Assembly: GCA_029262195.1 (NCBI GenBank)
Contig: JAJCZX010000003.1
Location: forward strand, 17,499-81,498
Source of the DNA: Gemmatimonadota bacterium
GTDB taxonomy: Bacteria; Gemmatimonadota; Gemmatimonadetes; Gemmatimonadales; GWC2-71-9
Reading direction: 5' to 3'
Length of the DNA stretch: 64,000 bases
Part shown: in pieces, positions 42,189 to 58,264 of the stretch
How the letters are laid out: each line of letters starts with the position of its first letter
Numbering within the stretch: the first letter of the stretch is position 1
The notes under the pieces: model-generated
Databases searched by the model: none
The model's input: only the letters and a program-made list of their open reading frames with translations
What the model was told of the DNA's origin: nothing
Program-made: the position numbers and the translations under genes

Positions 42189-42270
42189 TGGTTCGCAAGA
42201 AAGACCGGGCTTGATGCTGACAGATACCCTTGGGTGTCCGGTTTTGCTCCTACAACTAGAAGAAAATTTT

Positions 42271-42573
42271 ATGGCCTCAATCGAGTTGTTGGAAAAAGAA
42301 GTTCTTGATCGCGCGGCTAATGTCATCAAATGTCTGGGGCATCCGCTGCGTCTCCGTCTCCTGGCAGTTCTTGAAGAAGGAGAAAAGACGGTTACGGAGC
42401 TTCAGGAACGAAGTGATGCGACACAGGCAACCGTCTCCCAGCAGCTTGCAACACTCCGCGGGCGGGGAATCGTTGATTGCCGGCGTGAAGGAGCCAACGT
42501 CTTTTATTGGACAATTGAGCCGAAGGTATCAAAGATCCTGGACTGTATCAGTCAGTGTGATCGCGGCTTTTGA
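42271..42573 (+). CDS. shdrR: ArsR/SmtB-family transcriptional regulator (sHdrR/SqrR-like, Cys-containing)
   Basis: Winged-HTH signature LGHPLRLRLLAVLEEGEKTVTEL...ATVSQQLATLR. Four Cys residues. Divergent from the lbpA operon and upstream of tusA-shdr. Confidence 0.75.
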   Translation: MASIELLEKEVLDRAANVIKCLGHPLRLRLLAVLEEGEKTVTELQERSDATQATVSQQLATLRGRGIVDCRREGANVFYWTIEPKVSKILDCISQCDRGF

Positions 42574-42751: not shown

Positions 42752-42991
42752 ATGTCGGACGTTCAAGTTGACGAAACTCTCGATTGCAAGGGCATGCTCT
42801 GTCCCCTTCCCATTGTGAAACTCTCCAAGACCTTCAAGGCGCTCGACTCGGGCAAGGTCGTCCTGCTGCTGGCTACCGACCCCGGTTCCGAACCTGACAT
42901 CGCGGCGTGGGAGAAACGCACCAAGAACCAGGTCTTACAAAAAGACAAAGAGGGCGATGTCTTCAAGTTCTGGATCAAGAAAACGGCCTGA
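42752..42991 (+). CDS. tusA: TusA-family sulfur carrier protein
   Basis: LDCKGMLCPLPIVK (CPxP active-site motif). 79 aa. AGGAG Shine-Dalgarno. Confidence 0.9.
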   Translation: MSDVQVDETLDCKGMLCPLPIVKLSKTFKALDSGKVVLLLATDPGSEPDIAAWEKRTKNQVLQKDKEGDVFKFWIKKTA

Positions 42992-43008
42992 ACAGGGCGG
43001 GAGAAACA

Positions 43009-43380
43009 ATGTCTTCGATTGTCTATGTGCATACTGGCGGCGTAAACACACCAGAGCGTTCGGCCACTCCTATTTACCTCGCCTCCACGGCTGCGGCCAT
43101 GGATGTCGAGGTCGGTATCTACTTCACGGTTAACGGCCCCCAGTTGCTGGAAAAAGGGGTGGCGGAAAAACTGATCGTACCGAAGCATGATGGTGAGGGT
43201 GCACCGCTTATCAAGTTCATCACCCAGGCACAGGAACTCGGTGTAGAGTTTTACGTTTGCCAACCGAGTCTGGACCTTCACGGCCTTAAGGCCGACGACC
43301 TGATCGACGGAGTGAACATGATAGGGGGAGCTGCGTTTAACGACATGGCTCTCGACGCTGACCAAGTCATTTGCTTCTAA
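43009..43380 (+). CDS. dsrE: DsrE-family sulfurtransferase (DsrE3-type)
   Basis: DsrE/DsrF-like fold pattern (IVYVHTGG...IYFTVNG) with a conserved Cys in EFYVCQPS. I prefer the ATG at 43009 over the maximal ORF, which would overlap tusA. Confidence 0.7.
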   Translation: MSSIVYVHTGGVNTPERSATPIYLASTAAAMDVEVGIYFTVNGPQLLEKGVAEKLIVPKHDGEGAPLIKFITQAQELGVEFYVCQPSLDLHGLKADDLIDGVNMIGGAAFNDMALDADQVICF

Positions 43381-43391: not shown

Positions 43392-44081
43392 GTGACCCTG
43401 GCGCCAAACACCTACACCGACATCCCATACGAGGAAAAAGCCAAACTCATCGAAGAGGTGATGGCGGACCATCGTTATGGAGAACACCTTTACGGCTGTT
43501 ATGAGTGTGGTATCTGCGTTGCCGCCTGCCCTTCGGCTCGGTTTTACGATTTTTCCCCACGCAAAATAGCCCAGGCTGCTGCGAGGCAGGACGTCGAATT
43601 GATGTACGAGCAGATGAACGACGACGTCTGGAACTGTTCACAGTGTTTTTCCTGCACCAGGTGTCCGCGCGGTAATAACCCCGGGGGGATCATCACTGTG
43701 TTGCGTGAAGTTGCAGTTCGCAACGGCCTGGCTTCGGCGCGCGACGCACTTGAGGGTTATGGAAGAGTGGTCTACAAGATCATGTCGACCGGAACCCAGG
43801 TGTCGCCCGATATGCTCCAACCAAACGCGTTTCCCGACTGGGGCCCGCATGTGAAAGCTATCTCCGACAACGTTGAGACATGGCGAAAGGCGTTGCCGCC
43901 CGAGACGCTCCACACCACGAGCACGGCGTGGAACGTTGATGAGAAAACCATCATCGAACTCTACCTCATCTGGCAGGCCACCGGCGTGATGGACATGATC
44001 GGCGAAGTTGACGAAGGACTGCACATGATTCTCGAGGACGTCATGGAAGATGTTCTCGACGAAGCGGGCTACGAAACGTGA
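43392..44081 (+). CDS. shdrC1: Heterodisulfide reductase-like subunit C1 (two [4Fe-4S] motifs)
   Basis: CYECGICVAACP and CSQCFSCTRCP. Confidence 0.8.
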   Translation: MTLAPNTYTDIPYEEKAKLIEEVMADHRYGEHLYGCYECGICVAACPSARFYDFSPRKIAQAAARQDVELMYEQMNDDVWNCSQCFSCTRCPRGNNPGGIITVLREVAVRNGLASARDALEGYGRVVYKIMSTGTQVSPDMLQPNAFPDWGPHVKAISDNVETWRKALPPETLHTTSTAWNVDEKTIIELYLIWQATGVMDMIGEVDEGLHMILEDVMEDVLDEAGYET

Positions 44082-44121
44082 TGGTGGAAATCCGACTGGT
44101 TAAATTTGAAAGGGATCCTGC

Positions 44122-45306
44122 ATGAGTCTTGAATTACCGGTCCTGAAGGAGAGACGCGCCGAACGGAAAAACGCGCCCCCTCCCACAGAAGATGTCAGAG
44201 AGAAGGTTTTCGAGATCGAAGCGCAAGGCGATTGGATTGTACATCGCGTTCCCGACGATCACGTTGAGGTTTTTACCAAATATGGACGGGTCAAGAAGAT
44301 TCCCCGGCAGAACCTCTGGCACCACAAGTCCTGTGGCCAATGCGGTCATATTCCCGGATACTCTACCGCCATTTTTTGGCTAATGCGAAAACTTGGTCTC
44401 GCGTATGAAGATCCCACCGACCAAACCTCCTGTACGGCCTGGAACTACTATGCCTCTGCGACTTCCAATGCGGCAGCCCAGGCGGGGGTAGCAATGAGGA
44501 ATTTTGGGGCGGCGTATGAAGCGGGGAACTACCCGTTGATCCATTGTGGTACGTCTTATGGTCACTATAAAGAAGTCCGCGAGGAGTTGATCCACGATCC
44601 TGAGCTTCGCAAGCAGGTGAAGGGAATAATGGAAAAGCTGGGCAAGCCCTTTGTCATGCCGGAAGAAATTGTTCACTACAGCGAGTGGGTGTACGCAATG
44701 CGTAGGGAGCTTGCCAACCTCAAAGTTCTCGACTTTTCGGACATCACCGCCACAGTTCACCCGGCCTGTCACTACCACAAGCTGGTGGTAGAAGATGCGA
44801 TATATGACCGGGACATCTACGATGGTCAGCGCACCGCCGTGGTAACCGCGGTGGTCGAAGCGCTGGGTGCCAATATCGGTGAGTATTCCACCTGGTACGA
44901 CTGCTGTGGTTTCGGGTTTCGACACATTCTGGTTGAACGCGATTTTACTCGCTCCTTTGCAATTGAACGCAAAATTGAAGTCATGAAAAAGGAAGCCAAT
45001 CCGGATGTGGTCCTGACACACGATACCGGTTGCGTGACAACCCTTGACCAGAGCCAGTTTGCCGGACGGGCGCATGACAGGGACGTGGGCATTCCCGTGC
45101 TCTCCGATGCGCAGTTCGCCGCTCTGGCAATGGGGGCCCACCCTTACAAAGTCTGCCAGTTACACTGGCACAATACCGACAACAAACCCTTGCTGGAAAA
45201 AATGGGAATAGACCACGAATCAAAATGGGCGGAGTTCGAAGAGGAACTCCGGATGATAGAAGCTGGTGAAAAGGAGTTTCTGACCTGGGAGGACGCCGAT
45301 GGCTAA
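44122..45306 (+). CDS. shdrB1: Heterodisulfide reductase-like subunit B1 (CCG domains)
   Basis: Cys-rich CCG-domain motifs (CGQCGH..., HPACHYH, WYDCCGFGF, TGCVTT). Confidence 0.8.
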   Translation: MSLELPVLKERRAERKNAPPPTEDVREKVFEIEAQGDWIVHRVPDDHVEVFTKYGRVKKIPRQNLWHHKSCGQCGHIPGYSTAIFWLMRKLGLAYEDPTDQTSCTAWNYYASATSNAAAQAGVAMRNFGAAYEAGNYPLIHCGTSYGHYKEVREELIHDPELRKQVKGIMEKLGKPFVMPEEIVHYSEWVYAMRRELANLKVLDFSDITATVHPACHYHKLVVEDAIYDRDIYDGQRTAVVTAVVEALGANIGEYSTWYDCCGFGFRHILVERDFTRSFAIERKIEVMKKEANPDVVLTHDTGCVTTLDQSQFAGRAHDRDVGIPVLSDAQFAALAMGAHPYKVCQLHWHNTDNKPLLEKMGIDHESKWAEFEEELRMIEAGEKEFLTWEDADG

Positions 45307-46348
45307 GGACGTATTGATCGTCGGCGGCGGGCCCGCCGGATTGCATGCCGCTCGCAACATCGCGGACATCGGAGGCAATGCGATTCTCGTTGAACAGCGT
45401 GATGTTCTGGGAGGGACACCCGACGAAGCCCGGTATGCTGCTCTGACTCCGCACCTCGAGTCGGCACAGGACGCGTTGGATGAGATGAGAGCTGCGGTTA
45501 TCGACCGGCCAGAAATCGATTTGCGATTGGGTTCCACCGTGCTCGAAAGCTCAGGTAAGGCTGGCGACTTCAAAGTTTCGGTCGCCAAAAATGGCGGAGA
45601 GGCTGAACAGCTCGATGTCGGGTCGGTGATCCTGACTACCGGGTTCCAACATTTTGATCCGGGTCGTGAGACTCAGATGTACGGTTATTACGAAAACCCT
45701 GACGTTATCACACTGGTCGACGCCGAGAAGATGTTGAGTAAGCACGAATTTGTGAGGCCGTCAAACGGGGAAAAGCCTGAACGGGTTGCGTTTATTCAGT
45801 GTGTTGGCTCGCGGGACCGTCGTCTTGGTAACGAGTACTGCTCCAAGGTTTGCTGCGGTATCGCATCGAAAGAGGCAATTGAAATACGGAAGCTGTTGCC
45901 CGACACCAAGGTTTACATCTTCTACATCGACATGAGGATGTATGGCTACTGGGAGAATCAGCTGTACTGGCCGGCGCAGGAGGAACACAATGTCATATAT
46001 GTGCGTGGGATCGTAACCGAAATTCTCAAACGGGGCGACCGTCTCCTTATGAAGGGCGAAGACACAACGATGGGTCGCCCTATGGAGGTGGAGATGGACG
46101 TCATTGTTCTGTCGGTTGGGATGGAGCCCAGCGCTGGCACCCGTGAGATGGCTCGTGTCTTTGATATAGAGAAGAACAAATACGGATTCATCCATACTCC
46201 GGGCGAACCGATGGATCCGGTAAGTACCTCCGTGCCGGGGGTTTATGTGGCTGGGGCTGCGGCTGGTCCCAAGGACATCGAGGACAGTATCGGGATGGCG
46301 AGTGCGGCTGCGATGAAAGCGCTGGCTATGGTTCGGTCGGCCGGGTGA
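45299..46348 (+). CDS. shdrA: Heterodisulfide reductase-like subunit A (FAD plus [4Fe-4S] flavoprotein)
   Basis: VLIVGGGPAGLHAA dinucleotide fold. HdrA cluster motif CVGSRD...YCSKVCC. 8-nt overlap with shdrB1. Confidence 0.85.
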   Translation: MAKDVLIVGGGPAGLHAARNIADIGGNAILVEQRDVLGGTPDEARYAALTPHLESAQDALDEMRAAVIDRPEIDLRLGSTVLESSGKAGDFKVSVAKNGGEAEQLDVGSVILTTGFQHFDPGRETQMYGYYENPDVITLVDAEKMLSKHEFVRPSNGEKPERVAFIQCVGSRDRRLGNEYCSKVCCGIASKEAIEIRKLLPDTKVYIFYIDMRMYGYWENQLYWPAQEEHNVIYVRGIVTEILKRGDRLLMKGEDTTMGRPMEVEMDVIVLSVGMEPSAGTREMARVFDIEKNKYGFIHTPGEPMDPVSTSVPGVYVAGAAAGPKDIEDSIGMASAAAMKALAMVRSAG

Positions 46349-47103
46349 CACAGGTGACTGATTCTGGCACCCGGGTTCTCGACGCGCCCAGCGCAGTCGA
46401 GTTCATGCGTGAGGCGCTTGTCAAAATTTCCGAATCGGAAATTGCCGAGGTTGCATCCCAACTAGAGCAACGTAGAGATCTGTTGTTTCCCATGCTCGAG
46501 CGGGTCATCGATGGGCGTGGAAGCGTCGGAGATCTATCGACGTTGTGGCGTGGCGTCTTTGTTACGCGGAGAACAGCCACCGACCTATCAGCTTCCCGCA
46601 CGATGGAGAGTTGGGCGGAAAGTTTGCGCGAGCTGGTAAAGGGCCAGGATGATTTGCCGGTTCGGTTCAGTCGTTTCGATGCCGCATTACACCAACATGA
46701 AGAGTCCTTTCGACGCGACCTGGCCGGCGAGATGCTCAGGCTTTTTGACCCCGATGAATACTGGCTGTGGTCACGTTGGATGTGGAATGAAAAAACCGAT
46801 ACCGGGTCTCTTCCGCTTGTACTGGCGGAGGGGTTTGATCTCTCAGGGGACACTGCGGGAGAGATTTACCTGAAAGTCGGTGACGCTACGAAAGTTGTGA
46901 TAGATACCGCAAGCGAGATTGGTTTTGCCGGCATGAAGGCCAACTGCTACGCGGTCGACGTTTATCTCTGCGCCATTTATGGCATTTACCTCTACACCGT
47001 AACCCGTATGCGAATGACACAGGAGTTCAATCGGGTGATTCCCAAACTACCGGAGTTGGTTCGCCGTATGCTGGGTGTCCATCGCCTTGAGGTGGGATCG
47101 TGA
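46345..47103 (+). CDS. shdrH: sHdrH-position protein, function unknown
   Basis: 252 aa with no cofactor motifs. GTGA overlaps on both sides (with shdrA and with the HdrC/B fusion). Confidence 0.6.
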   Translation: MTQVTDSGTRVLDAPSAVEFMREALVKISESEIAEVASQLEQRRDLLFPMLERVIDGRGSVGDLSTLWRGVFVTRRTATDLSASRTMESWAESLRELVKGQDDLPVRFSRFDAALHQHEESFRRDLAGEMLRLFDPDEYWLWSRWMWNEKTDTGSLPLVLAEGFDLSGDTAGEIYLKVGDATKVVIDTASEIGFAGMKANCYAVDVYLCAIYGIYLYTVTRMRMTQEFNRVIPKLPELVRRMLGVHRLEVGS

Positions 47104-48380
47104 GTCGCGTCGATAAAACCGAGGGCTCAATTGAAAAAGCCGAAGCCGTAGTTGACGGAGTTGATATTTCCGGACACTGGAACCGGATGTTGGAGCCCCG
47201 CTGGATCACTGATTACCCAACGGAGGCGATGGACTGGGTGACGAGCCTGGATGGGGGCGAATCCCTCAGAGCCTGCTACCAGTGTGCCAAGTGCGTGCCC
47301 GTTTGCCCTGTCGAACATGTTGGCTCTTACGGGCCACGGAAGCTCATGCGGAAGGTGCAACTCGGGAACAACCTCATGGAGGACCCTGACCTATGGTTGT
47401 GTACTTCGTGTGCGGCGTGTTTGCGGGTGTGTCCCAAAGAAGTGGACATGCTTCAGATAATGCCTGCGATCAGAGAGCAAGCGGTCCTCGAAGGTCATGT
47501 TCCCCCGGAATTGGCTAAGGCGTTTGAAAACATGGGGAGGCACGGTAACCCTCTGGGCCAACCGTCGCGCAAGCGTATTGCCTGGACCAAAGGTTTTGAT
47601 GTCGAAGTTCCAATCATGTCCAAGATCAAACGCAAGGTTGACGTGCTCTGGTATGTCTCGGACTACACGTCTTACCATCCCCGCGGCCACGATGCAGCCA
47701 GAGCTATGGCCCGTGTGCTCACGCGACTGGGAATTGATTTTGCCATACTTGGCCAGGAAGAAAAATGCGACGGAGATTCCCCACGCGTCGCCGGAGAGAA
47801 GGGGTTGTTCGAAATGCTGGCGGAAGAGAATATCGCCACCTTCGACAAGTATGAGTTTGACAGGCTAGTCGTCATGGACCCGCATGCGTACAACGCTTTT
47901 AAGAACCATTATCCTGCACTGGGTGGGGATTACAACGTTTTGCACTACACTCAACTTCTGGTCGACTATATCGACAGGATGGAGTTCAGCGAAACTTTGG
48001 ACATGGAAGTCACTTTCCACGATCCATGCTATCTGGGTCGTCACAACGGAGAGTACGAGGCGCCACGGAAACTTCTTGAGGCTATACCGGGAGTGAAACT
48101 CACGGAGATGCCGCACTACAAGGCCACCGGTTTTTGTTGCGGTGGTGGCGGCGGAGGAATGTGGTTGGACGGGTTTGCTGCCGATCACCAGAGTGAGCGA
48201 CTGAGCGAGCGAAGGGTGAAGGAAGCTGTCGAAGTAGGTGCTCAGACGCTCGCCGTGACCTGTCCTTACGAGCCCTCCCGTTTCGAAGACGCAGTCAAAA
48301 GCACAGGCAACGACGGAAGCCTTGAAGTTGCGGATATCATCGAACTATTAGACAGAGCCATGGGGCTCTCGGAGTCGTAG
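47100..48380 (+). CDS. shdrB3: HdrC-HdrB fusion protein (sHdrB3-type; two [4Fe-4S] motifs plus two CCG domains)
   Basis: CYQCAKCVPVCP and CTSCAACLRVCP, then FHDPCYLGR and GFCCGGGGG. Collinear with the soluble part of the Emo-like protein. Confidence 0.75.
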   Translation: MSRVDKTEGSIEKAEAVVDGVDISGHWNRMLEPRWITDYPTEAMDWVTSLDGGESLRACYQCAKCVPVCPVEHVGSYGPRKLMRKVQLGNNLMEDPDLWLCTSCAACLRVCPKEVDMLQIMPAIREQAVLEGHVPPELAKAFENMGRHGNPLGQPSRKRIAWTKGFDVEVPIMSKIKRKVDVLWYVSDYTSYHPRGHDAARAMARVLTRLGIDFAILGQEEKCDGDSPRVAGEKGLFEMLAEENIATFDKYEFDRLVVMDPHAYNAFKNHYPALGGDYNVLHYTQLLVDYIDRMEFSETLDMEVTFHDPCYLGRHNGEYEAPRKLLEAIPGVKLTEMPHYKATGFCCGGGGGGMWLDGFAADHQSERLSERRVKEAVEVGAQTLAVTCPYEPSRFEDAVKSTGNDGSLEVADIIELLDRAMGLSES

Positions 48381-48383
48381 CAG

Positions 48384-49154
48384 ATGAACATAGTGGTTTT
48401 AGTAAAACAGGTGCCCGACCTGGCGGAGGAGTTTGAGGTCAACTCTGACGGAACCGAGTTGGACGAAGATTGTCTTTCCTGGGTTCTTAACGAATTTGAC
48501 GATCACGCTCTTGAGGAGGCCCTCCACCTGAAGGAAGAGACCGGCGGTTCGGTCACGGTTCTGGCGCCGGGTTTTGAAGGAGTTGAAGACGTTCTGTTCA
48601 CGTGCCTGGCCAAGGGCGCCTCGAAAGTTGTGAAGGTCGGCGACTTCGACGTCAGTCCTGACTCCCATTCAATTGCCGCCGTGATGGCGAAGGCTCTTGG
48701 CGAGATTGCTCACGATGTCGTGTTAACCGGTGTCCAATCGGTGGCTGATCTCGATGGTCAGGTTGGCCCTCTTCTGGGGGCTAATCTTGGGATTCCTCAC
48801 GTGAGTGTCGTTACACACGTTTCAATAAACTCCGCTGCCAAAACTGCCACGATCAATCAAGAGTATGCCGGTGGAGTCCTTGGCGAGTTTGAGGTGAGTC
48901 TTCCGGCTGTGCTGGGAATCCAGGCGGCCCGAGAACTGCCGCGCTATGCCCCGGTGAGTCGGGTACGACAGCTGATGAAGACCGAGACTATCGATGAGGT
49001 CGCGTGTGATGTCGGGATGGGTGGTGGGCTGGTGGTCAAGAAAATGTCACCACCCGAAGTGGTAGGGCATGCGGAGATGATTGAAGGGGACGAGGACGAA
49101 GTGAGCGAAAAAATTGTCGCGATTCTTGGCGACGCCGGCCTGATAAATAAGTGA
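48384..49154 (+). CDS. etfB: Electron transfer flavoprotein beta subunit
   Basis: MNIVVLVKQVPD... EtfB N-terminus and a C-terminal PRYAP...IR arm. Confidence 0.9.
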   Translation: MNIVVLVKQVPDLAEEFEVNSDGTELDEDCLSWVLNEFDDHALEEALHLKEETGGSVTVLAPGFEGVEDVLFTCLAKGASKVVKVGDFDVSPDSHSIAAVMAKALGEIAHDVVLTGVQSVADLDGQVGPLLGANLGIPHVSVVTHVSINSAAKTATINQEYAGGVLGEFEVSLPAVLGIQAARELPRYAPVSRVRQLMKTETIDEVACDVGMGGGLVVKKMSPPEVVGHAEMIEGDEDEVSEKIVAILGDAGLINK

Positions 49155-50131
49155 GCCCTGAGATGAGCAACGATATTTTTGTTCTGATTGAACACAGAGA
49201 TGGCAAGGTTAGTGAGAACGCGTACGAGCTTTTAGGTAAGGCTCGTTCCCTGGCTGCCGCCGCCGGGGGGTCCGTCACGGCTCTCGTACTGGGCCAGGGC
49301 GTTGGAAACATGGCATCCAGTTTGGGCGCGGCGAACAAAGTACTGGCCGTCGAAGGCGATTCGGTTGCGCAGTTTACGCCAACGGGTTATGTGAATGCCC
49401 TTACACCGATAGTCGAAACCGGTAATCCTTTACTTACGCTGGTGCCAAACACCGCGGTGGGAATCGACGTTGCAGCGGGGTTGTCTGCTGCATTGAAACT
49501 TCCGCTGGCGTCATACGCAATCGGGATTGAGATCGCAGACGGTTTGCCCTCGATTGTGTGTCAGACACTGGGCGGAAAGATCAATACCGAAGTTGGGTTT
49601 ACCGTTGGCCGAGGAATTGTTGCGGTAAATGGTGGCGCGTTTGCGGCTGACGACGGGCGCATCGAAGGTCAACCGTTAGTGGAGACTCTGTCTGCATCCG
49701 GTGATGCTGCAGGCGTCGTGTTCAAGAGATTCATCGAGCCGGAATCAGGCGATGTCGATATTACGAAGGAAGACATCCTGATTTCTGTTGGGCGTGGCAT
49801 CGAAGAGAAGGACAACATCGAACTCGCCGAAGAGCTTGCCGAAGCGATGGGTGGAGCGGTGTGTGCTTCCCGCCCGGTAGTCGACGCAGGTTGGTTGCCC
49901 AAGAGCAGGCAGGTAGGAAAATCCGGTCAAACCGTCAAGCCGAAACTGTATGTGGCTGTAGGAATAAGCGGGGCTCCTGAACACCTCGAAGGAATGAGAG
50001 ATGCTGAATTGGTCATCGCCATTAACTCCGATGCGTCGGCTCCGATATTCGGTGCAGCGCATTACGGGGTGGTTGGGGATCTATTCGATATCCTCCCGGC
50101 GCTGACCGAGAAAATCGGGGAGGCTGGCTAA
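49151..50131 (+). CDS. etfA: Electron transfer flavoprotein alpha subunit
   Basis: IFVLIEH N-terminus. FAD-binding C-terminal motifs (SRPVVDAGW, QVGKSGQTVKP.LYVAVGISGA.EH). GTGA overlap with etfB; an alternative ATG lies at 49163. Confidence 0.9.
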   Translation: MSPEMSNDIFVLIEHRDGKVSENAYELLGKARSLAAAAGGSVTALVLGQGVGNMASSLGAANKVLAVEGDSVAQFTPTGYVNALTPIVETGNPLLTLVPNTAVGIDVAAGLSAALKLPLASYAIGIEIADGLPSIVCQTLGGKINTEVGFTVGRGIVAVNGGAFAADDGRIEGQPLVETLSASGDAAGVVFKRFIEPESGDVDITKEDILISVGRGIEEKDNIELAEELAEAMGGAVCASRPVVDAGWLPKSRQVGKSGQTVKPKLYVAVGISGAPEHLEGMRDAELVIAINSDASAPIFGAAHYGVVGDLFDILPALTEKIGEAG

Positions 50132-50132
50132 G

Positions 50133-52274
50133 GTGATAACGGCGGTGCAGCAGGAAGTTACTCGCGAAGTTTTTCTTAACTTCTCGACCACCGCCAAGGT
50201 CGTTTTCTACGTTGTCGCGAACGCGGCCATTATCGTTTTTTTCTGGGGCTCCTGGCTCAAGGTCCGAAAGTACAGGCGCGGGTTACCGGATAATCGGTTT
50301 CAGTTCCTGTTCAGGAGACTGGCTACTGCGGGATCCCAGTACGTTGCCAACAGGACCGTAGCCAGGCGCAACCCGATTGTGGGGTTGTCCCACAGCCTGA
50401 TTGTCTGGGGTTTCCTGGCGTTATTTATTGGCACCGTAATCCTCACTATTGACGAAGACATCCTGGGAATAATCCTACCTCAGTACCAGTTCTTCCACGG
50501 CGCTTTCTATCGCTGGTACTCGGTAGTCCTGGACGTACTCGGTGTGGGCTTCCTGATCGGGCTTGTCGCGATGGGCGTGAGACGGGGGTTCGCCAGGCCG
50601 AAAGCTCTGGATTATTCGAGAGTTGACCGTTCCCAAAATGAAACCAGTCGAGGTGGCTTCAAACGCGGCGATTGGCTCTTCCTGGGGCTCCTCTTCTTCA
50701 TTGGCGTCACCGGATATCTACTTGAAGGGTTCCGCATTGCTGGAACCGGGTTCCCAGAGTTTGAAAGATGGTCTCCGGTGGGTTGGTGGCTTGCCGGGGT
50801 TTTTCAGGGATTCGGATGGGTGGGCGATGCAGGGCTGGATGCTCACAAGGTCACCTGGTGGGTCCACGGTGCCGCAGCGCTTGGTTTCGTAGGGTACATA
50901 CCCTACTCCAAGGCGATTCACGTCGTCGTCGATTCGCTTAATATCGCCTTCAAAGATCCGCTGGCTGGAAAACGGTTGCCCGCGGCTGCTGAGGGGGCCG
51001 ACCACCTTGGCCAGAGGGACCTCGGCGACTTCACGTGGAAACAACTACTGGACTTCGACGCCTGCACCAAGTGCGGTAGATGTCATGTGGTGTGTCCGGC
51101 CCGGCTTGCCGGGGCTCCACTGTCGCCTCGCGATCTGATTCTCGATATGCGCCAGCACGCGGATGCGTCACTCGCGTTCCTGGCTCCCGGACATGAAAAA
51201 CTTGCCAACCCCGGATTCGGGGATGCGACTGCAATGATTCCAGGTTCAGTGATTGGAGCCGACACACTCTGGGCCTGCACCACATGTTTGGCCTGTGTGG
51301 AGGCCTGTCCGGTCGGTATTGAGCACGTGCCAACCATAGTTGGTATGCGCCGCAACCTTGTCGACCAGGGTGAAATTGAGTCGATGCTTCAGTCGACGCT
51401 TGAAAACTTCGGAAAAAAGGGCAACTCGTTCGGCAAATCAGGTCGGATGAGGGCCAGGTGGGCGAAAAGTCTTCCTTTCAAGATCAAAGACGCGCGCAAG
51501 GAACCTGTCGACGTTTTGTGGTTTGTGGGTGACTATGCGGCGTTCGATGAAACGGTTCAAGAAACAACACTAAAAGTTGCGCGGGTCTTTGACGCGGCCG
51601 GTTTGAATTTTGGAATTTTGTATGAAGGAGAGCAGAACGCGGGTAATGATGTAAGGCGCGCCGGAGAAGAGGGTCTTTTTGAGATGCTCGCAGAACACAA
51701 TATCGCTGAGTTGGAAAAGGCTGATTTCAAGGAAATCGTCACGACGGACCCCCATTCTCTCAACGCTCTGCGGAACGAATACCCCGAACTCGGAGCGTCT
51801 TATCCGACCGTTCACTACACCGAACTCCTTGTTCGCCTGATCGAAAACGGATCCATCAAGATTGCGAACCCAATGGGTCGCAGAGTAACCTACCACGACC
51901 CGTGCTACCTTGGTCGTTATAACGACGTTACCGAAGCTCCACGCACCTTGATGGCGCTGTGCGGATCGACTGTCGTCGAAATGCCACGGCATGGGAAGAA
52001 TTCATTTTGCTGCGGTGCGGGTGGTGGGCGGATCTGGATGGATGACAGTGCTCTGGAAGAACGCCCCAGCGAAAACAGGATTAAGGAGGCAGCGGAGCTT
52101 ACAGGAATAACGGATTTCGTGGTCGCCTGCCCAAAGGACATGTCCATGTTTAGAGCGGCGGCCAGCACAACCGGTCTGGATTCAAAACTTCAGGTCACCG
52201 ATGTAATCGATCTCGTCGTGGAAGCGATGGGGTTGGACCTCTCGGACTCCGATGACAAAGAGCAAGAAGGGTAG
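50133..52274 (+). CDS. emo: Membrane-bound Etf:quinone oxidoreductase-like FeS protein (Emo/DUF224 type: NarI/DsrM-like TM domain, 2x[4Fe-4S], CCG domains)
   Basis: About five N-terminal TM helices with conserved His residues. CTKCGRCHVVCP and CTTCLACVEACP. YHDPCYLGR and FCCGAGGG. Confidence 0.75.
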   Translation: MITAVQQEVTREVFLNFSTTAKVVFYVVANAAIIVFFWGSWLKVRKYRRGLPDNRFQFLFRRLATAGSQYVANRTVARRNPIVGLSHSLIVWGFLALFIGTVILTIDEDILGIILPQYQFFHGAFYRWYSVVLDVLGVGFLIGLVAMGVRRGFARPKALDYSRVDRSQNETSRGGFKRGDWLFLGLLFFIGVTGYLLEGFRIAGTGFPEFERWSPVGWWLAGVFQGFGWVGDAGLDAHKVTWWVHGAAALGFVGYIPYSKAIHVVVDSLNIAFKDPLAGKRLPAAAEGADHLGQRDLGDFTWKQLLDFDACTKCGRCHVVCPARLAGAPLSPRDLILDMRQHADASLAFLAPGHEKLANPGFGDATAMIPGSVIGADTLWACTTCLACVEACPVGIEHVPTIVGMRRNLVDQGEIESMLQSTLENFGKKGNSFGKSGRMRARWAKSLPFKIKDARKEPVDVLWFVGDYAAFDETVQETTLKVARVFDAAGLNFGILYEGEQNAGNDVRRAGEEGLFEMLAEHNIAELEKADFKEIVTTDPHSLNALRNEYPELGASYPTVHYTELLVRLIENGSIKIANPMGRRVTYHDPCYLGRYNDVTEAPRTLMALCGSTVVEMPRHGKNSFCCGAGGGRIWMDDSALEERPSENRIKEAAELTGITDFVVACPKDMSMFRAAASTTGLDSKLQVTDVIDLVVEAMGLDLSDSDDKEQEG

Positions 52275-52280
52275 GCAAAG

Positions 52281-52718
52281 ATGGGCGATGCACGCGGCTG
52301 TAATATTCCCGAAGATCGTTATTACTGGGTAGAGAAGCACGTTTGGGTGAAAGAAGACCAAGGCGGCGTGTTTCTAGTTGGCATGACTGATGTCGCCCAG
52401 AACATGGCGAGTGCACTCGTTGCGGTGACTCCCAAACGGGCAGGCCGGTCGATAACCAAAGGGAAGAGTGTTGCGACGGTCGAAAGTGGTAAGTGGGTGG
52501 GCCCAATTCCCGCCCCGGTAAGCGGTGAAATCGTTGAGATCAATGAGGCCTTGAAAGCCGATCCCGGTATCGCTAATCGCGATCCCTACGGGGAAGGTTG
52601 GGTGGTGAAATTCAAACCTGATGATTGGGCCGGTGAGGGTGTTGGATTACCGACTGGTGCAGAGGCCGTTACCGCATACGATGCGTTCCTTGAGCAAGAG
52701 GGAATAAGCTGCGAGTAG
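52281..52718 (+). CDS. lbpA: GcvH-like lipoate-binding protein (LbpA)
   Basis: Lipoyl-lysine context ATVESGKWVGPIPAPVSGEIVEIN. Confidence 0.8.
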   Translation: MGDARGCNIPEDRYYWVEKHVWVKEDQGGVFLVGMTDVAQNMASALVAVTPKRAGRSITKGKSVATVESGKWVGPIPAPVSGEIVEINEALKADPGIANRDPYGEGWVVKFKPDDWAGEGVGLPTGAEAVTAYDAFLEQEGISCE

Positions 52719-52728
52719 GACGCTTTTA

Positions 52729-53181
52729 GTGTCGGTGTGGCGCGGGTGCGATATCCCGGAAGATCTTTGGTACGACATTGATCGTGACGTTTGGATCCGT
52801 GTGGAAGGCGATGGGACGGTTACTGTGGGAATGACGGACCCGGCGCAAACGCGGTGCGGAATGCTGGTGCACCTGCAGATCAAGCGACCGGGTCGAAAAG
52901 TGGTGAGAGGGCGGAGCATTGCGACTGCGGAGAGTGCCAAGTGGGTTGGGCCGTTTCCGGCACCGGTGTCCGGAGAGATTGTTGGGACGAATCAGACCGC
53001 GTTTGACGACGATGTTCGGATAGCGAATAAGGACCCCTACGGGGGCGGCTGGATAGCCCGGCTTCTCCCGGACGACTGGGCAGGTGAAGTTGAGCAGCTG
53101 TCGACGGGAAAAGATGCTGTGGAGAAGTACAAGCAACGAATCGAAGCGATCGGCGTTAACTGCATGAGGTGCGCCGAGTAG
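52729..53181 (+). CDS. lbpA: GcvH-like lipoate-binding protein (LbpA), tandem paralog
   Basis: Lipoyl-lysine context ATAESAKWVGPFPAPVSGEIVGTN. Confidence 0.8.
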   Translation: MSVWRGCDIPEDLWYDIDRDVWIRVEGDGTVTVGMTDPAQTRCGMLVHLQIKRPGRKVVRGRSIATAESAKWVGPFPAPVSGEIVGTNQTAFDDDVRIANKDPYGGGWIARLLPDDWAGEVEQLSTGKDAVEKYKQRIEAIGVNCMRCAE

Positions 53182-53206: not shown

Positions 53207-53782
53207 ATGGGCAGCACGATTGATGGCCGAGGTGCTATTACTGCCGAGATGGAAGAGTTGATCGCACAGAAGGTGGCTGAGGCGATTGCCGCGAAGGAAG
53301 CGGAAAAGGCTGACGCACCGAAAAAGATGACGATCATTGCGACAAAGGGTACGCTGGACTGGGCCTACCCTCCTCTAATTTTGGCCTCTACCACGGCTGC
53401 TCTGGGCTGGGAGGTCGGGATCTTCTTTACCTTCTACGGTTTGAACATCATTCACAAAAAGAAGATCAAGAAACTGGCAGTAGCCCCTCTGGGAAATCCA
53501 GCCATGCCAATGCCTGTGCCAAACATCATAGGGGCGATCCCTGGGATGACTGCGGTGGGCACGGCAGTGATGAAGAAAATGTTCAAGAGCCACGGAGTTG
53601 CGTCTATTGAAGAACTCCTGGAAATGTGCATCGACCTTGACGTGAAGTTGTTCCCATGTGGCATGACCATCGAAGTGTTTGGATATGACCCCAAGGATTT
53701 CGTTGACGGAATCGAGCCTCTCTGCGGGGCGGCGCATTTCGTCGAATATGCGGCTGACGCGGATGTTTCGCTGTTTATCTGA
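53207..53782 (+). CDS. dsrE: DsrE/DsrF-like family protein (DsrE3-type) with an N-terminal charged extension
   Basis: MTIIATKGTLDWAYPPLILAS...IFFTFYG core. Conserved Cys in KLFPCGMT. Confidence 0.7.
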   Translation: MGSTIDGRGAITAEMEELIAQKVAEAIAAKEAEKADAPKKMTIIATKGTLDWAYPPLILASTTAALGWEVGIFFTFYGLNIIHKKKIKKLAVAPLGNPAMPMPVPNIIGAIPGMTAVGTAVMKKMFKSHGVASIEELLEMCIDLDVKLFPCGMTIEVFGYDPKDFVDGIEPLCGAAHFVEYAADADVSLFI

Positions 53783-53821: not shown

Positions 53822-55363
53822 GTGTTGATGGCTGCACCATCAGTTGCAGAAGCAAATCATGAGTTGAAGTGGGCCAAGACGATTGATCACACGAAGTGCA
53901 TTGGTTGCCATGCGTGTACGACGGCCTGCAAGTCCGAAAACGAAGTTCCGTTGGGTGTAACTCGTACCTACGTGAAGTACGTTGACGTGGGTGTTTTCCC
54001 GCAGGCGCACCGCGCGTTTCAGGTTACTCGTTGCAACCAGTGCGAGGATGCGCCGTGTGCCAAAGCCTGTCCGACGGCCGCGATGCACAAACGCCCTGAC
54101 GGGATAGTCGACTTCGACAAATCGATTTGCATCGGCTGCAAAGCTTGTATCGCTGCGTGTCCGTACGATGCAATTTTCATTAACCCCGAGGACCACTCTG
54201 CGGAGAAGTGCAACTTTTGCGCGCATCGAATTGATGTTGGGCTGGAACCAGCATGCGTCGTCGTCTGCCCGACCGAAGCGATCATGGTTGGCGATCTAAA
54301 CGACCCGACCTCCGGTGTGGCGCGAATGGTAGATAGGGAACCCGTCACGGTGCGCCGTCCGGAGAAAGGCACCCTCCCGAAACTGTTCTACAAAGGTGCT
54401 CGCCAGGTGACGTTGGACCCGATCGCGGCAAAGCGGCCCGGTGGCGGACTTTTCATGTGGAGTGAGCAGCTTACCGGAACCCAAAGAGTTGTTTCTGGTC
54501 ATCCGGGCGAAAACAATAGTTCGGCTGCGGCGGTGCTGTCGTACGATGTTCCGCATAAAGCTCCCTGGGATTGGCGAGTGAGCCTCTATACCTGGACGAA
54601 GGGCGTTGCGGCAGGGGCTTATCTTGTGCCGCTACTGATTTTGATGATGGGTGGAATAGGACCGGACGACCCTCTCTGGGTGTGGGTCGCGCCGATCATG
54701 GCCGGAATAGGGCTCGCTCTGACCGGCGTTCTGTTGATATGGGACCTGGAACATCCCGAACGCTTTTACATGCTGTTCACACACGCCCAGTGGAGTAGCT
54801 GGTTGGTCCGCGGCGGGTTCATTATCGGCGCCTACTCTGCAGTTCTGGGTTTGCATTTTCTCGGTTCTGTGCTGGACGTGCCGGACATCCGGCGGCTTTT
54901 GATTCTACCAGGGTTCTTTTTGGCTGTGATGACTTCCGTTTACACCGCATATCTGTTCGCACAGTCCAAGGGACGGGATATGTGGCAGAACCCGCTCCTG
55001 GTACCGCACCTGCTGATACAGAGTCTAATGTTGGGTGCAGCTCTCCTGTTGGTTTTTGCCCCGCGCGGTATGTCATCAGTGACAGGGCACCTCCACTGGA
55101 TGCTTCAGATTACCATCCTGATCCACCTCGCTCTGGTAATGGGCGAGGTTTCGATGCCCCATCCCACTGCACATGCCAAACTCGCCACGCAGGAAATGAT
55201 TGCGGGTCGCTTTGGCGGGTTTTTCTGGGTCGGGATACTGATGGTTATGGTGGGACTCGCTGCTCCGTGGTTGGGAGTGGCGGTGGTGCCGTTTGTCGCT
55301 GTCGGACTTTTTGCTCACGAGCATGCCTGGGTGCAGGCCGGCCAATCTGTGCCGCTGGCCTGA
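53822..55363 (+). CDS. Fused 4x[4Fe-4S] subunit (PsrB/NrfC/SoeB-like) and NrfD-type 8-TM quinone-interacting subunit (PsrC/SoeC-like)
   Basis: Residues about 1-200 carry CIGCHACTTAC, CNQCEDAPCAKACP, CIGCKACIAACP and CNFCAHR...CVVVCP. Residues about 245-513 form eight hydrophobic helices. The reading frame is uninterrupted. Confidence 0.75.
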   Translation: MLMAAPSVAEANHELKWAKTIDHTKCIGCHACTTACKSENEVPLGVTRTYVKYVDVGVFPQAHRAFQVTRCNQCEDAPCAKACPTAAMHKRPDGIVDFDKSICIGCKACIAACPYDAIFINPEDHSAEKCNFCAHRIDVGLEPACVVVCPTEAIMVGDLNDPTSGVARMVDREPVTVRRPEKGTLPKLFYKGARQVTLDPIAAKRPGGGLFMWSEQLTGTQRVVSGHPGENNSSAAAVLSYDVPHKAPWDWRVSLYTWTKGVAAGAYLVPLLILMMGGIGPDDPLWVWVAPIMAGIGLALTGVLLIWDLEHPERFYMLFTHAQWSSWLVRGGFIIGAYSAVLGLHFLGSVLDVPDIRRLLILPGFFLAVMTSVYTAYLFAQSKGRDMWQNPLLVPHLLIQSLMLGAALLLVFAPRGMSSVTGHLHWMLQITILIHLALVMGEVSMPHPTAHAKLATQEMIAGRFGGFFWVGILMVMVGLAAPWLGVAVVPFVAVGLFAHEHAWVQAGQSVPLA

Positions 55364-55372
55364 GGGAATAAA

Positions 55373-58264
55373 ATGACTGCTAAGAAGACTGTTGGAGTAA
55401 CGAAGGAAGAAACTCAAGATCGGGGGGAGACCCACTACCCTGGTTCAAGTCGCACTTCTCTGGCCGCATACCCTCCGAAGGAACGGTGGGATGATTGGGT
55501 GGAGCTGGATTCAAAGTCGTGGCCAGAAAAAGTTGAAAAGCGATACCGGCTCGTTCCCACAACGTGTTTCAATTGTGAATCCGCCTGTGGACTCCTGGCG
55601 TACGTTGATCGGGAGACCGGGGAGATTCGCAAACTGGAAGGCAACCCCGAACACCCGGGGTCCCGCGGGCGCAATTGTGCCAAAGGGCCAGCGACCGCAA
55701 ATCAGATTCAGGACCCTGATCGAATTCTCTATCCCATGAAAAGAGCAGGTGAGCGGGGTGAAGGGAAATGGGAACGAGTCGATTGGGAAGAGGTGTTGGA
55801 CGTTGTTTCCGAAAAAATTCGCAGGGCGATTGATGAGGATCGGCACAACGAGGTCATGTATCATGTTGGTCGACCGGGCGAAGATGGATTTACCGAGAAA
55901 ATCCTTGCCGCCTGGGGAGTAGACGGCCATAATTCGCACACCAACGTTTGCTCATCTAATGCCCGGGCCGGTTATCAGTTCTGGATGGGTATGGATCGCC
56001 CGAGCCCCGACTACGGCAATGCGAAAGTCATTCTGCTGATCTCGGCTCATCTTGAGACCGGGCATTATTTCAATCCGCACGCGCAGCGGATAATGGAAGC
56101 AAAGAATAATGGCGCAAAACTGATTGTATTTGACACGCGGCTCTCGAACACAGCTACTCACGCCGACCATTGGATTTCTCCGTTCCCCGGATCTGAAGCG
56201 GCGATCTTGCTCGCGATCGCTAACTATTTGATCCAGAACAAACTCTACAATCGGACATACGTGGAACGGTGGTTCAACTGGCGGGAATTTATGGCCGCTG
56301 AACGATCGAATGTTGAGGCGACGTTCGAGAATTTTGAAAATGAACTCGTCGAGCTATATGCCGAATACACGTTTGAATTCGCGGCGGGAGAATCGGGCGT
56401 GGATGCTGATACACTCAAAGCGGTAGCTGAAGTCGTGGCTACAAGCGGTACACGGCTGGCGTCACACAACTGGCGCAGTGCCGGGGCGGGGAATGAAGGA
56501 GGCTGGCAGGTTGCTCGCACGTTGTTCTTTTTGAACGCCCTGCAGGGGGCGGTGGCAACGGAGGGTGGGACGTGTGGGAACGCGTGGAATAAATTCGTTC
56601 CCAAACCGATGATTGTGCCGCCGCATCCCGATAACTGGAATGAGCTTACCTGGCCGGTCGAGTACCCTCTTGCGATGAACGAGCTGTCGTTTCTCCTGCC
56701 ACATTTTTTGAAGTCCGGGCGGGGCAAGATCGATACGTATTTCAGTAGAGTCTACAATCCAGTGTGGACCAACCCTGATGGATTCACCTGGATCGAGATA
56801 CTGAAAGATCCAGACCTGGTAGGGCTTCACATTGCTATGACTCCCACGTGGAACGAGACGGCCTACTTTGCGGACTACGTAATACCCATGGGCCACAGTC
56901 CAGAACGACACGACCTTACGTCTTACGAAACTCAGCATGGCCAGTGGATCGGATTCCGTCAGCCCGTGTTGCGAACGCTGGCTGAAAAGGACGGTCGCAC
57001 AATAACCGATACGCGAGAGGTAAACCCGGGCGAGGTGTGGGAGGAAAACGAGTTCTGGCTTGAGTTAACCTGGCGCATTGATCCTGACGGTAGCCGGGGA
57101 ATCCGCAAACACGTTGAGTCGCGCAAGAAACCGGGCGAGCGTGTCTCCGTCGACGAGTATTATTCCTATTCGTTCGAAAACTCTGTTCCCGGACTTCCGG
57201 AGATAGCGGCCGAAGAAGGCCTTTCGGCTCTGGAGTACATGCGCAAGTACGGAGTGTTTGAAGTAAAAAAGAAGCAGGGCGAGTTGAATGAATCGGAGGT
57301 CCCCGCTTCTGAGTTAGACGACGTCGCCGAAAACGAATTCGGCAGAGTGTACACGAGAACACCGAAACCAGCCTCGCCCAACATTGCGCCGACAGGTGCT
57401 CCGGACGACGATTCGGAAGGTCGCCGAGCCGTTGGTGTCCGAGTAGATGGCAAAGTTCTAAAAGGTTTCCCAACTCCAAGCGGATTATTGGAATTCTATT
57501 CTCCAACGCTCGCTCGCTGGGGTTGGGGTGAAGCAGCTATTCCGACATACATGAAGAGTCATGTTCATCCAGACAACCTTGGTGATGGTCAATTCGCTCT
57601 TATATCTACCTTCCGCCTACCGGTACAGATTCATACTCGAAGTGCCAACGCTAAGTGGTTGGACGAGATAGCACACACCAACCCTCTGTGGATCAACACG
57701 GTTGATGCGGCTCGCCTCGGCTTGCGGACTGGCGACCTTGCCCGGGTGAGTACGGAGATCGGTTATTTCGTGTTGAAGACATGGGTTACAGAGGGAATTC
57801 GCCCGGGCGTTGTCGCCTGCAGCCACCACATGGGGCGCTGGAAGGTGGGAGAAGAGGGCCAGAGGCAGAACATGGCTACTGTTGATCTCCAGAACGACGG
57901 CACCAGTTGGAAGATCACTCGGAAAAAGGGTGTTGCACCGTATGAATCTTCTGATACTGATACGTCCAGGATCTGGTGGAGTGATGCCGGGGTCCATCAG
58001 AACATTACGTTTCCTGTGCATCCCGACCCGGTTTCTGGCCAGCATTGCTGGCATCAAGCTGTGCAAGTGGAAAAGGCTCATCAAGACGACGCAGCCGGCG
58101 ACATTAGTGTCGACACAGCGAAATCAATGGCGGCTTATGAAACCTGGATGGCCAAGGCTCGGACGGCTCATGACCATTCCCCGGACGGTACGCGTCGGCC
58201 CCACTGGATAATGCGGCCTCTAAAACCGGGGAAAGAACACTTCAAACTCCCACCAAAACGTTGA
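55373..58264 (+). CDS. Molybdopterin (bis-MGD) oxidoreductase catalytic subunit of the Psr/Phs/Ttr/Soe clade, without a Tat signal (SoeA-like)
   Basis: FS0 motif CFNCESAC...RNCAKG. Cys Mo-ligand region HTNVCSSNARAG. 963 aa. The N-terminus has no RRxF(L/K) twin-arginine motif and no hydrophobic h-region. Confidence 0.75.
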   Translation: MTAKKTVGVTKEETQDRGETHYPGSSRTSLAAYPPKERWDDWVELDSKSWPEKVEKRYRLVPTTCFNCESACGLLAYVDRETGEIRKLEGNPEHPGSRGRNCAKGPATANQIQDPDRILYPMKRAGERGEGKWERVDWEEVLDVVSEKIRRAIDEDRHNEVMYHVGRPGEDGFTEKILAAWGVDGHNSHTNVCSSNARAGYQFWMGMDRPSPDYGNAKVILLISAHLETGHYFNPHAQRIMEAKNNGAKLIVFDTRLSNTATHADHWISPFPGSEAAILLAIANYLIQNKLYNRTYVERWFNWREFMAAERSNVEATFENFENELVELYAEYTFEFAAGESGVDADTLKAVAEVVATSGTRLASHNWRSAGAGNEGGWQVARTLFFLNALQGAVATEGGTCGNAWNKFVPKPMIVPPHPDNWNELTWPVEYPLAMNELSFLLPHFLKSGRGKIDTYFSRVYNPVWTNPDGFTWIEILKDPDLVGLHIAMTPTWNETAYFADYVIPMGHSPERHDLTSYETQHGQWIGFRQPVLRTLAEKDGRTITDTREVNPGEVWEENEFWLELTWRIDPDGSRGIRKHVESRKKPGERVSVDEYYSYSFENSVPGLPEIAAEEGLSALEYMRKYGVFEVKKKQGELNESEVPASELDDVAENEFGRVYTRTPKPASPNIAPTGAPDDDSEGRRAVGVRVDGKVLKGFPTPSGLLEFYSPTLARWGWGEAAIPTYMKSHVHPDNLGDGQFALISTFRLPVQIHTRSANAKWLDEIAHTNPLWINTVDAARLGLRTGDLARVSTEIGYFVLKTWVTEGIRPGVVACSHHMGRWKVGEEGQRQNMATVDLQNDGTSWKITRKKGVAPYESSDTDTSRIWWSDAGVHQNITFPVHPDPVSGQHCWHQAVQVEKAHQDDAAGDISVDTAKSMAAYETWMAKARTAHDHSPDGTRRPHWIMRPLKPGKEHFKLPPKR

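Follow-up and report, generated by a model that had tools for sequence, protein, structure and literature searches.

A 64,000-nucleotide stretch of DNA from a Gemmatimonadota bacterium (GenBank assembly GCA_029262195.1, contig JAJCZX010000003.1, positions 17,499 to 81,498 of the forward strand; hereafter the window) contains a heterodisulfide reductase-like (sHdr) gene cluster, in which the core genes are followed by those for a soluble HdrC/HdrB fusion protein (sHdrB3, hereafter B3), an electron transfer flavoprotein (Etf) and a membrane protein of predicted EMO/EtfD type. The soluble fusion and the cytoplasmic part of the membrane protein are homologs, and the genes for the two Etf subunits lie between them. 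How would electrons leave such a core, and what would each of the two related modules contribute?

The type II sHdr operon

From hdrC1 to lbpA2 (43392-53181), ten genes are arranged head to tail on the plus strand. Neighboring genes overlap by 4-8 nt or are separated by gaps of at most 40 nt, and a pattern scan between the operon genes gave no convincing terminator. They make up a single, densely packed operon that includes the sHdr core:

43392-44081, plus strand: sHdrC1, with two cubane [4Fe-4S] motifs (NCBIfam HdrC, 7.7e-23)
44122-45306, plus strand: sHdrB1, the proposed catalytic CCG subunit (NCBIfam HdrB, 7.5e-36; PDB HdrB, 2e-16)
45299-46348, plus strand: sHdrA, a short 349-residue FAD/Fe-S flavoprotein (NCBIfam HdrA2, 8.5e-79, core only)
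46345-47103, plus strand: sHdrH ("hyp"), 252 residues, at the shdrH position and without a family match; 4-nt overlaps on both sides
47100-48380, plus strand: sHdrB3, the 426-residue soluble HdrC/HdrB fusion, with a ferredoxin domain and a CCG/NCB domain (residues about 150-426)
48384-49154, plus strand: EtfB, a dedicated paralog, with the motif TGVQSVADLDGQVGP and no DGDT signature
49151-50131, plus strand: EtfA, with the FAD domain and no N-terminal ferredoxin domain
50133-51020, plus strand: EMO (713 residues in total, 50133-52274), NarI-like membrane domain with five helices; heme His residues by homology
51021-52274, plus strand: EMO, cytoplasmic module with two cubane motifs and an NCB domain
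52281-52718, plus strand: LbpA1, a GcvH-like lipoate-binding protein
52729-53181, plus strand: LbpA2, GcvH-like

The locus is an already known type II sHdr-LbpA cluster (shdrC1B1AH-B3-etfBA-emo-lbpA). The same arrangement was first drawn for Sulfobacillus (Justice 2014, PMC4378227), and type II was later defined and surveyed by the Dahl group (Tanabe/Dahl 2024, PMC11094781). A pair of soluble and membrane-bound HdrCB-fusion paralogs had been named HdrD/HdrF as early as 2009 (PMC2702500). A type II system is recognized by a single syntenic cluster that holds shdrC1, B1, A, H and B3 as well as etfA and etfB (Tanabe et al. 2024); here these genes occupy 43392-50131 on one strand with gaps of no more than 40 nt, emo follows 3' of etfAB, and three LbpA genes, DsrE and DsrE2 are associated. 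Gene content and order are those of the type II clusters of Sulfobacillus, Thermomicrobium roseum, Chloroflexota and Actinomycetota, which likewise have DsrE transferases, an ArsR regulator and lipoate-assembly genes nearby. Nothing essential sets the window apart from other type II loci. Its shdr genes are closest to those of Gemmatimonadota metagenome-assembled genomes (72-82% identity), and it carries a tandem pair of lbpA genes and, at its 3' end, a SoeABC-like enzyme.

With sHdrA as the probe, 97 loci were fetched: the best 80 from genome contigs, and 17 new stretches from samples of 301 Marinisomatota and 401 Chloroflexota genomes, 33 of which have an sHdrA ortholog. sHdrA homologs occur in all related loci at 59-88% identity. 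The order C1-B1-A-H-B3-EtfB-EtfA-EMO is kept in the 97 loci, from more than ten phyla, as far as the sequence reaches, with a single exception (L029, considered below); every Marinisomatota or Chloroflexota stretch that reaches past shdrA is of type II. Where at least 5.5 kb is available 3' of B3 (48 loci), etfB, etfA and a full-length emo follow in order in 43; of the remaining five, three have etfBA followed by an emo that is truncated or unclear, one has no emo in range, and one is L029. No type I locus was met, either by tblastn of plasmids with sHdrA, which returned only distant HdrA-like sequences, or in the scan of the best 80 contigs. An lbpA gene stands between shdrB3 and etfB in many type II loci of Bacteroidota, Calditrichota and KSB1 (L028, L034, L047-L049, L054-L056, L060, L062, L065, L068 and L073).

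Homology between the soluble fusion and the membrane protein

The original prediction for this DNA, made from its letters alone, held that the 426-residue fusion is collinear with the membrane protein from about residue 300 onward, with etfB and etfA (48384-49154 and 49151-50131) between the two genes. A pairwise alignment bears this out. BLASTP returns one collinear alignment with 155/403 identities (38%, E = 3e-88), pairing B3 residues 58-426 with EMO residues 310-704 and taking in the ferredoxin domain, with its two CxxCxxCxxxCP motifs, and the entire CCG domain. All the string pairs then quoted fall inside it: DVLWYVSDY/DVLWFVGDY, GLFEMLAEENIA/GLFEMLAEHNIA, MDPHAYNAF/TDPHSLNAL, FHDPCYLGR/YHDPCYLGR, FCCGGGGG/FCCGAGGG and DRAMGL/VEAMGL. 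The likeness is a property of the family and not a quirk of one genome, because it is present in all 46 other loci that have both genes at full length (33-44% identity, E from 1e-70 to 1e-99). Other CCG proteins of the same 4.2-Mb genome reach 24-35% identity, over parts only. The homology of B3 and EMO is thus far beyond chance.

The membrane protein matches the M. smegmatis EtfD structure (PDB 9OJN) with E = 2.7e-86, its membrane domain at E = 8e-20 and its soluble region at 1e-64. It has four strong hydrophobic segments and a weaker fifth helix bearing the last two His residues; B3 has no hydrophobic segment. EMO His87, His245 and His263 align with His78, His223 and His241 of 9OJN, in agreement with the earlier proposal of a NarI/DsrM-like N-terminal domain with conserved His residues as candidate heme b ligands. 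Cryo-EM of SaEMO, the enzyme of Syntrophus aciditrophicus, places the heme ligands at H87/H251 (proximal) and H233 (distal) (bioRxiv 10.64898/2026.08.18.745454). Across the 47 sHdr-linked EMOs, the residues corresponding to His87, His263 and His245 are conserved in 47, 47 and 38 sequences. The His245 column (window positions 50865-50867) holds Ala in the other nine, while the proximal ligands are invariant, and some sHdr-linked EMOs may carry a single heme, as does M. smegmatis EtfD. By its sequence, the protein is an enzyme of EMO/EtfD type with predicted ETF:menaquinone oxidoreductase activity. It resembles EtfD (older names HdrF and DUF224) and SaEMO in its NarI-like heme-b domain, in a two-cubane ferredoxin domain with an insert, in a His-capped NCB/CCG domain, and in the position of its gene directly after etfBA.

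Is B3 an HdrB-like protein or an EtfD-like one? In a phmmer search of structures, B3 matches 9OJN at 4.6e-64 (residues 66-417; 220 bits), as against 1.5e-16 for HdrC and 5e-5 for HdrB. It scores 19.9 bits on the HdrB model TIGR03288 (cut-off 345) and 6e-21 on the HdrC model TIGR03290, and its best NCBIfam match is TfrB (6e-43), well below the cut-off. An AlphaFold model of B3 (pLDDT 87.9) searched with Foldseek against the PDB finds 9OJN first (E = 6e-27, TM 0.77 over 431 columns), whereas HdrB reaches a TM of 0.46. An exhaustive phmmer search with B3 over 1.84e9 representative proteins, of which the best 150 matches were inspected, points the same way. After the B3 clusters themselves, nearly all matches have the architecture of EMO: they are 640-780 residues long, and the aligned part is their C-terminal 330-370 residues. 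Some soluble HdrD-like proteins of about 385 residues and TfrB-like proteins of about 520 residues are also among them. Both proximal-heme His residues are present in 82 of the 150, and these matches include no ten-Cys HdrB2-type protein of about 300 residues. One further protein (P0127, 745 residues) carries a B3-type module (DSDDHA...E pattern) behind a stretch of about 330 residues whose start resembles a helix-turn-helix regulator, and may be a true fusion or a gene-call artefact. Sequence comparison and predicted fold both put B3 much nearer to EtfD/EMO than to HdrB, and it is certain that B3 and the soluble module of EMO belong to one HdrD/EMO(EtfD) family.

Cofactor ligands

Ligand columns were read from an alignment of 76 B3 sequences, 47 sHdr-linked EMOs and EtfD sequences. 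For the window proteins they are as follows:

B3, cubane clusters: Cys59/62/65/69 and Cys101/104/107/111
B3, proximal non-cubane cluster: Cys310, Cys346, Cys347, Cys388 and His262, with Glu391 in place of the last Cys
EMO, cubane motifs: Cys311-321 and Cys382-392, with an insert of about 60 residues between them
EMO, proximal non-cubane cluster: Cys591, Cys626, Cys627, Cys666 and His541, with Asp669 in place of the last Cys
EMO, heme b ligands by homology with SaEMO/MsEMO (bioRxiv 10.64898/2026.08.18.745454): proximal His87 and His263, distal His245

The eight ferredoxin Cys are invariant in B3 and in the sHdr-linked EMOs. At the last Cys position of the second CxxC, all 43 EMOs that cover the column have Asp and all 76 B3 sequences have Glu. 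Where methanogen HdrB has C-N-G-C, both B3 and EMO read x-P-H-x, with His for Gly in 76/76 and 47/47 sequences. In SaEMO and MsEMO this His ligates or blocks the proximal cluster, capping what is the coenzyme M-binding site in Hdr (bioRxiv 10.64898/2026.08.18.745454). B3 keeps five or six of the ten CCG cysteines, and so lacks the two complete CCG motifs of catalytic HdrB/HdrD; its first motif reads Asp188, Cys223, Asp224, Asp260 and Ala263, and the distal Cys are mostly gone across the B3 family. Since an EMO-type His sits at the substrate site and the ligand pattern is of this kind, the sequences argue for B3 as an electron-transfer module like EMO, without disulfide chemistry. Like B3, both HdrD (from HdrDE, with paralogs of that name in sulfate reducers; PMC2702500) and TfrB are soluble fusions of a ferredoxin domain and two CCG half-domains. 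B3 differs from HdrD in the absent distal cluster, in the His at the substrate site, in the Glu for the last Cys and in having no HdrE partner, and it is encoded with sHdrA (in Planctomycetota with a full-length HdrA) and Etf.

For the distal non-cubane cluster (FeS4/D1), the window EMO has lost its ligands, and Asp467, Asn502, Ala503, Asp539 and Ser542 stand in place of Cys; at the four columns counted in the 47 sHdr-linked EMOs (Asp467, Asn/Ser502, Asp539, Ser/Thr542) there is not one Cys. Such a loss is not new in itself. It has been described for FadF and DgcB, where direct transfer from ETF to the proximal-type cluster was inferred (PMC13083937), and missing D1 ligands therefore mark an EMO subtype and are no bar to membership. 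Compared with EtfD, the sHdr-linked EMOs have lost the D1 ligands, carry Asp for the last Cys, form a clade of their own (100/100) and would serve sulfur oxidation instead of beta-oxidation as the donor process.

The Etf pair

The window EtfB carries the motif GVQSVADLDGQVGP, and the consensus of 57 sHdr-linked EtfB sequences is GVQAxDDxDGQxGP. In bifurcating (group 2) EtfB, Garcia Costas reportedly described in 2017 a motif ...G(R/K)QAIDGDTAQVGP that binds the second FAD. A motif of the bifurcating type is visible in the A. fermentans and C. difficile sequences used for comparison, while the DGDT signature of bifurcating Etf is found neither in the window EtfB nor in the 57-sequence consensus. 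The best PDB match of EtfB is the AMP-type W3A1 ETF (132 bits, as against 85 bits for the bifurcating 4KPU). On this one motif and the PDB ranking, the operon Etf is, with moderate confidence, predicted to be non-bifurcating.

A second EtfBA is encoded on another contig of the same genome (C34:85449-91681), together with an acyl-CoA dehydrogenase and a 552-residue ETF-QO/FixC-like protein; its EtfB and EtfA are 32% and 40% identical to the operon pair. Because this housekeeping set is separate, the operon Etf, packed with the sHdr genes, is a dedicated paralog, and the possibility that it belongs to a fatty-acid-linked clade falls away. The window's genome holds no second EMO.

Did the two modules arise by duplication?

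The original prediction derived the soluble and membrane modules from a duplication. The shared family stands, and the NCB-domain tree makes them sisters, but the ferredoxin and full-length trees separate them and the approximately unbiased (AU) test rejects neither arrangement. A FastTree analysis had placed the B3 clade as sister to the sHdr-linked ("D-type") EMO clade with support of 96. This placement is not relied on: it is absent from the full-length tree under a site-heterogeneous model in IQ-TREE, with or without the motif columns. In the IQ-TREE analysis (LG+C20, 69 modules, with the ferredoxin and CCG/NCB domains also treated separately), full-length B3 shows a weak affinity to the ten-Cys, soluble HdrD-like proteins (86/74 or 66/52), D-type EMO joins canonical EMO (93/76), and the AU test gives p = 0.063 for the sister arrangement. 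The CCG/NCB domain unites B3 and D-type EMO at 99/98, and at 95/94 after removal of the eleven ligand columns and the two positions on either side; alternative arrangements are not rejected (AU p = 0.19 and 0.21). The ferredoxin domain places B3 with the soluble proteins (94/89) and EMO inside the EMOs (99/87), with AU p = 0.055 for the sister arrangement. Possible sources of the conflict between domains are a mosaic origin, gene conversion among the neighboring paralogs, or joint adaptation of both NCB domains to one Etf. That both proteins have lost the distal cluster was also considered as proof of common descent and set aside as decisive evidence, for several other lineages, as well as FadF and DgcB (PMC13083937), are degenerate at these positions too.

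A B3-EtfBA-EMO cassette without the sHdr core

A 285-residue match (P0133), at first sight a stand-alone B protein and a possible split form, was rejected as such. It is a fragment of a B3-like family of about 405 residues in Planctomycetota and Omnitrophota, which was reached through it. All six contexts of this family (L111:10001-17293, L113:9001-16009, L114:9001-19284, L118:9001-19077, L119:9001-15983 and L120:9001-19212) hold genes for the B3-like protein (403-427 residues), EtfB, EtfA, an EMO-like protein (668-763 residues) and a full-length HdrA (662-679 residues). In three of them the operon goes on with MvhD and the small and large subunits of a [NiFe]-hydrogenase, and none of the six loci contains shdrC1B1AH. 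Identities to the window proteins in L111, L113 and L114 are 43-45% for B3, 37-39% for EtfB, 41-45% for EtfA and 37-41% for EMO. The Thermogutta cassette has a D-type EMO and a B3-like protein with the Glu. Upstream of the cassette in L120 (312-5691) lie genes for a response regulator-GcvH (lipoyl/H-protein) fusion, a separate HdrC, an HdrB and a 676-residue HdrA-like protein. A search of the literature turned up nothing specific on the Planctomycetota cassette.

Second EMOs were examined in three type II genomes. B3 stands beside none of these, all the Cys are present in two of the three, and one of these two sits in a plain etfB-etfA-emo trio. From the cassette loci and these second EMOs it follows that B3, its Etf and its EMO subtype form a travelling unit that attaches to HdrA-type flavoproteins. 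This favors an order of core, B3, Etf and EMO, and points to an origin of type II sHdr in which the cassette was joined to an sHdr core. The Planctomycetota/Omnitrophota operon may be an HdrA-based system with Etf, EMO and menaquinone as the acceptor. A wider proposal, which we put forward as tentative, is that the cassette is an old, portable output from flavoproteins to quinone. The B3 NCB domain would be the Etf-reducing site, paralogous to the Etf-oxidizing site of EMO (to which the NCB tree makes it sister), and the operons with full-length HdrA and MvhDGA would carry out H2-driven HdrA bifurcation with menaquinone as acceptor.

Neighboring genes

Around the operon lie the following genes:

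41633-42091, minus strand: a third lbpA, divergent, with two radical-SAM genes
42154-42573, plus strand: ArsR-type regulator, sHdrR-like (Pfam HTH_5/HTH_20), upstream
42907-43380, plus strand: DsrE-family sulfur transferase (Pfam DsrE/DrsE_2), upstream
53207-53782, plus strand: DsrE2 sulfur carrier (NCBIfam SulfCarrDsrE2, 1.4e-61)
53822-58264, plus strand: fused Fe-S/NrfD subunit plus a molybdopterin subunit (SoeABC-like), at the operon end

For the last of these, NCBIfam returns TtrB, DsrO and PhsA-type families, none of which reaches the cut-off. A role in dissimilatory sulfane-sulfur oxidation is predicted from this context, with its SoeABC-like enzyme, sulfur carriers and ArsR regulator.

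Electron route and alternatives

With a probability of about 0.6, we read the B3-EtfBA-EMO genes as that half of a type II sHdr-LbpA operon for sulfur oxidation through which electrons leave. Sulfane sulfur would be oxidized at the sHdrC1B1/A core with the participation of LbpA, and B3 would sit on sHdrA as an HdrD-like arm, in contact through its HdrC-like ferredoxin domain. B3 would act as a pure electron wire, passing electrons through two cubane clusters and then one His-capped non-cubane cluster to the FAD of the dedicated, probably non-bifurcating EtfAB. The reduced Etf would dock on the homologous CCG/NCB domain of EMO, in keeping with the SaEMO:ETF structure from cryo-EM, in which the NCB domain is the site of ETF docking and of electron entry (bioRxiv 10.64898/2026.08.18.745454). 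From the non-cubane cluster of EMO, electrons would pass over two cubane clusters and the heme(s) b to a quinone, presumably menaquinone. Because B3 and the EMO module share the HdrD/EMO(EtfD) family, Etf may be pictured as shuttling between two paralogous docking platforms.

The original prediction of a path from sHdr through EtfAB and EMO to quinone was largely right and is not new, the same route having been published: EtfAB and EMO leading to menaquinone, and the contrast with type I, had already been proposed (PMC11094781 citing Kumpel 2024; PMC4378227). The contrast that it drew with type I, where electrons are thought to leave by way of lipoamide and NAD+, is likewise in the literature (PMC11094781, PMC4378227). 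Lipoamide is not bypassed here; the locus has three LbpA genes and lipoate-assembly genes.

Several points weigh against this route. To our knowledge, no type II component has been characterized biochemically. The contact between B3 and Etf is drawn from adjacency and homology. EtfA scores about equally with the bifurcating 5OL2 and with W3A1 ETF (1O94), slightly better with 5OL2. The direction of flow is inferred, and EMO runs both ways in syntrophs (PMC8805022). In a variant type II locus of Chloroflexi bacterium CSP1-4 (L029:10001-20890, LDXM01000030), shdrC1B1AH-B3 runs straight into sat, aprB, aprA, qmoA and qmoB, and neither etf nor emo lies within 7.7 kb. An Etf next to it is thus no requirement for B3, which may have other partners there, or etf and emo may lie elsewhere in that genome. 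Type I sHdrC2 and sHdrB2 were compared with B3 by their literature description rather than by sequence, so that fusion of C2 and B2 was weighed against import of an HdrD/EMO-type protein only indirectly.

Alternatively, B3 could be a fused form of type I sHdrC2 and sHdrB2, that is, a disulfide reductase arm of sHdr acting on lipoamide/LbpA or a persulfide. EtfAB and EMO would then be fed from another site, such as sHdrA or reduced LbpA via a flavoprotein, and the likeness to EMO would reflect HdrBC ancestry. We consider this unlikely. B3 has been described as "essentially a fusion of sHdrC2 and sHdrB2" that holds a single non-cubane cluster and has the same operon position (PMC11094781), its ferredoxin domain is HdrC-like (1.5e-16 to PDB HdrC, 6e-21 to TIGR03290), the locus has three LbpA genes, and the CSP1-4 locus has a B3 with no adjacent etf or emo. 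In type I (Hyphomicrobium, Aquifex, Acidithiobacillus), sHdrC2 and sHdrB2 follow shdrH as B3 does and are presumed to form the second arm of the sHdrA dimer; by the published description they are separate proteins and B2 has two complete CCG motifs, which sets them apart from B3. Against a fused disulfide reductase stand the five or six CCG cysteines of ten and the EMO-type His at the substrate position, the 19.9 bits for TIGR03288 as against 220 bits for EtfD, and the absence of a ten-Cys HdrB2-type protein of about 300 residues from the 150 best matches. B3-like proteins and EtfBA-EMO also stay together where there is no adjacent sHdr core or LbpA-dependent system.

The module proposed here to carry electrons outward could also run in reverse, the proton motive force driving menaquinol electrons through EMO and Etf into B3/sHdrA, where they would be the low-potential supply for a reductive step, by analogy with the reverse redox loop of EMO and with enoyl-CoA respiration. 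EMO is reversible and coupled to the proton motive force in Syntrophus (PMC8805022; bioRxiv 10.64898/2026.08.18.745454), and His245, present here and in 38 of the 47 sHdr-linked EMOs, makes a trans-membrane two-heme arrangement possible. Such a direction appears improbable given the oxidative context of the operon, with its sulfur transferases, LbpA and SoeABC-like enzyme, and a short-form sHdrA without the ferredoxin-interacting domains. Known type II hosts are, moreover, aerobic sulfur oxidizers, and the type II cluster of Thermomicrobium roseum is induced 45-fold in persistence (Islam 2019, PMC6776052).

The weakest reading, in which B3 and EMO share generic CCG similarity (both do match the broad Pfam families CCG and Fer4) and a fatty-acid Etf was inserted between them by chance, is ruled out by the 38% collinear alignment over the ferredoxin and CCG domains against at most 24-35%, in parts, for other CCG proteins of the genome, by the recurrence of the similarity in 47 loci, by a gene order conserved in 97 loci of more than ten phyla, and by a housekeeping Etf that lies elsewhere with acyl-CoA dehydrogenase and ETF-QO and is only 32% (EtfB) and 40% (EtfA) identical.

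Implications

Type II is the less-studied sHdr system, yet a common one in Chloroflexota, Actinomycetota, Bacillota, Bacteroidota, Marinisomatota and Gemmatimonadota. Its gene arrangement and the proposed electron path were already in the literature; what is added here is the ligand detail of B3 and EMO and the cassette without an sHdr core. To regard B3 as an electron wire of EMO/EtfD type, and not as a further disulfide reductase, would sharpen the published type II model. If the tentative proposal for the Planctomycetota and Omnitrophota operons is true, they would represent an undescribed form of H2-driven HdrA-based bifurcation, in which menaquinone, reached through B3, Etf and EMO, takes the place of the heterodisulfide on the high-potential side.

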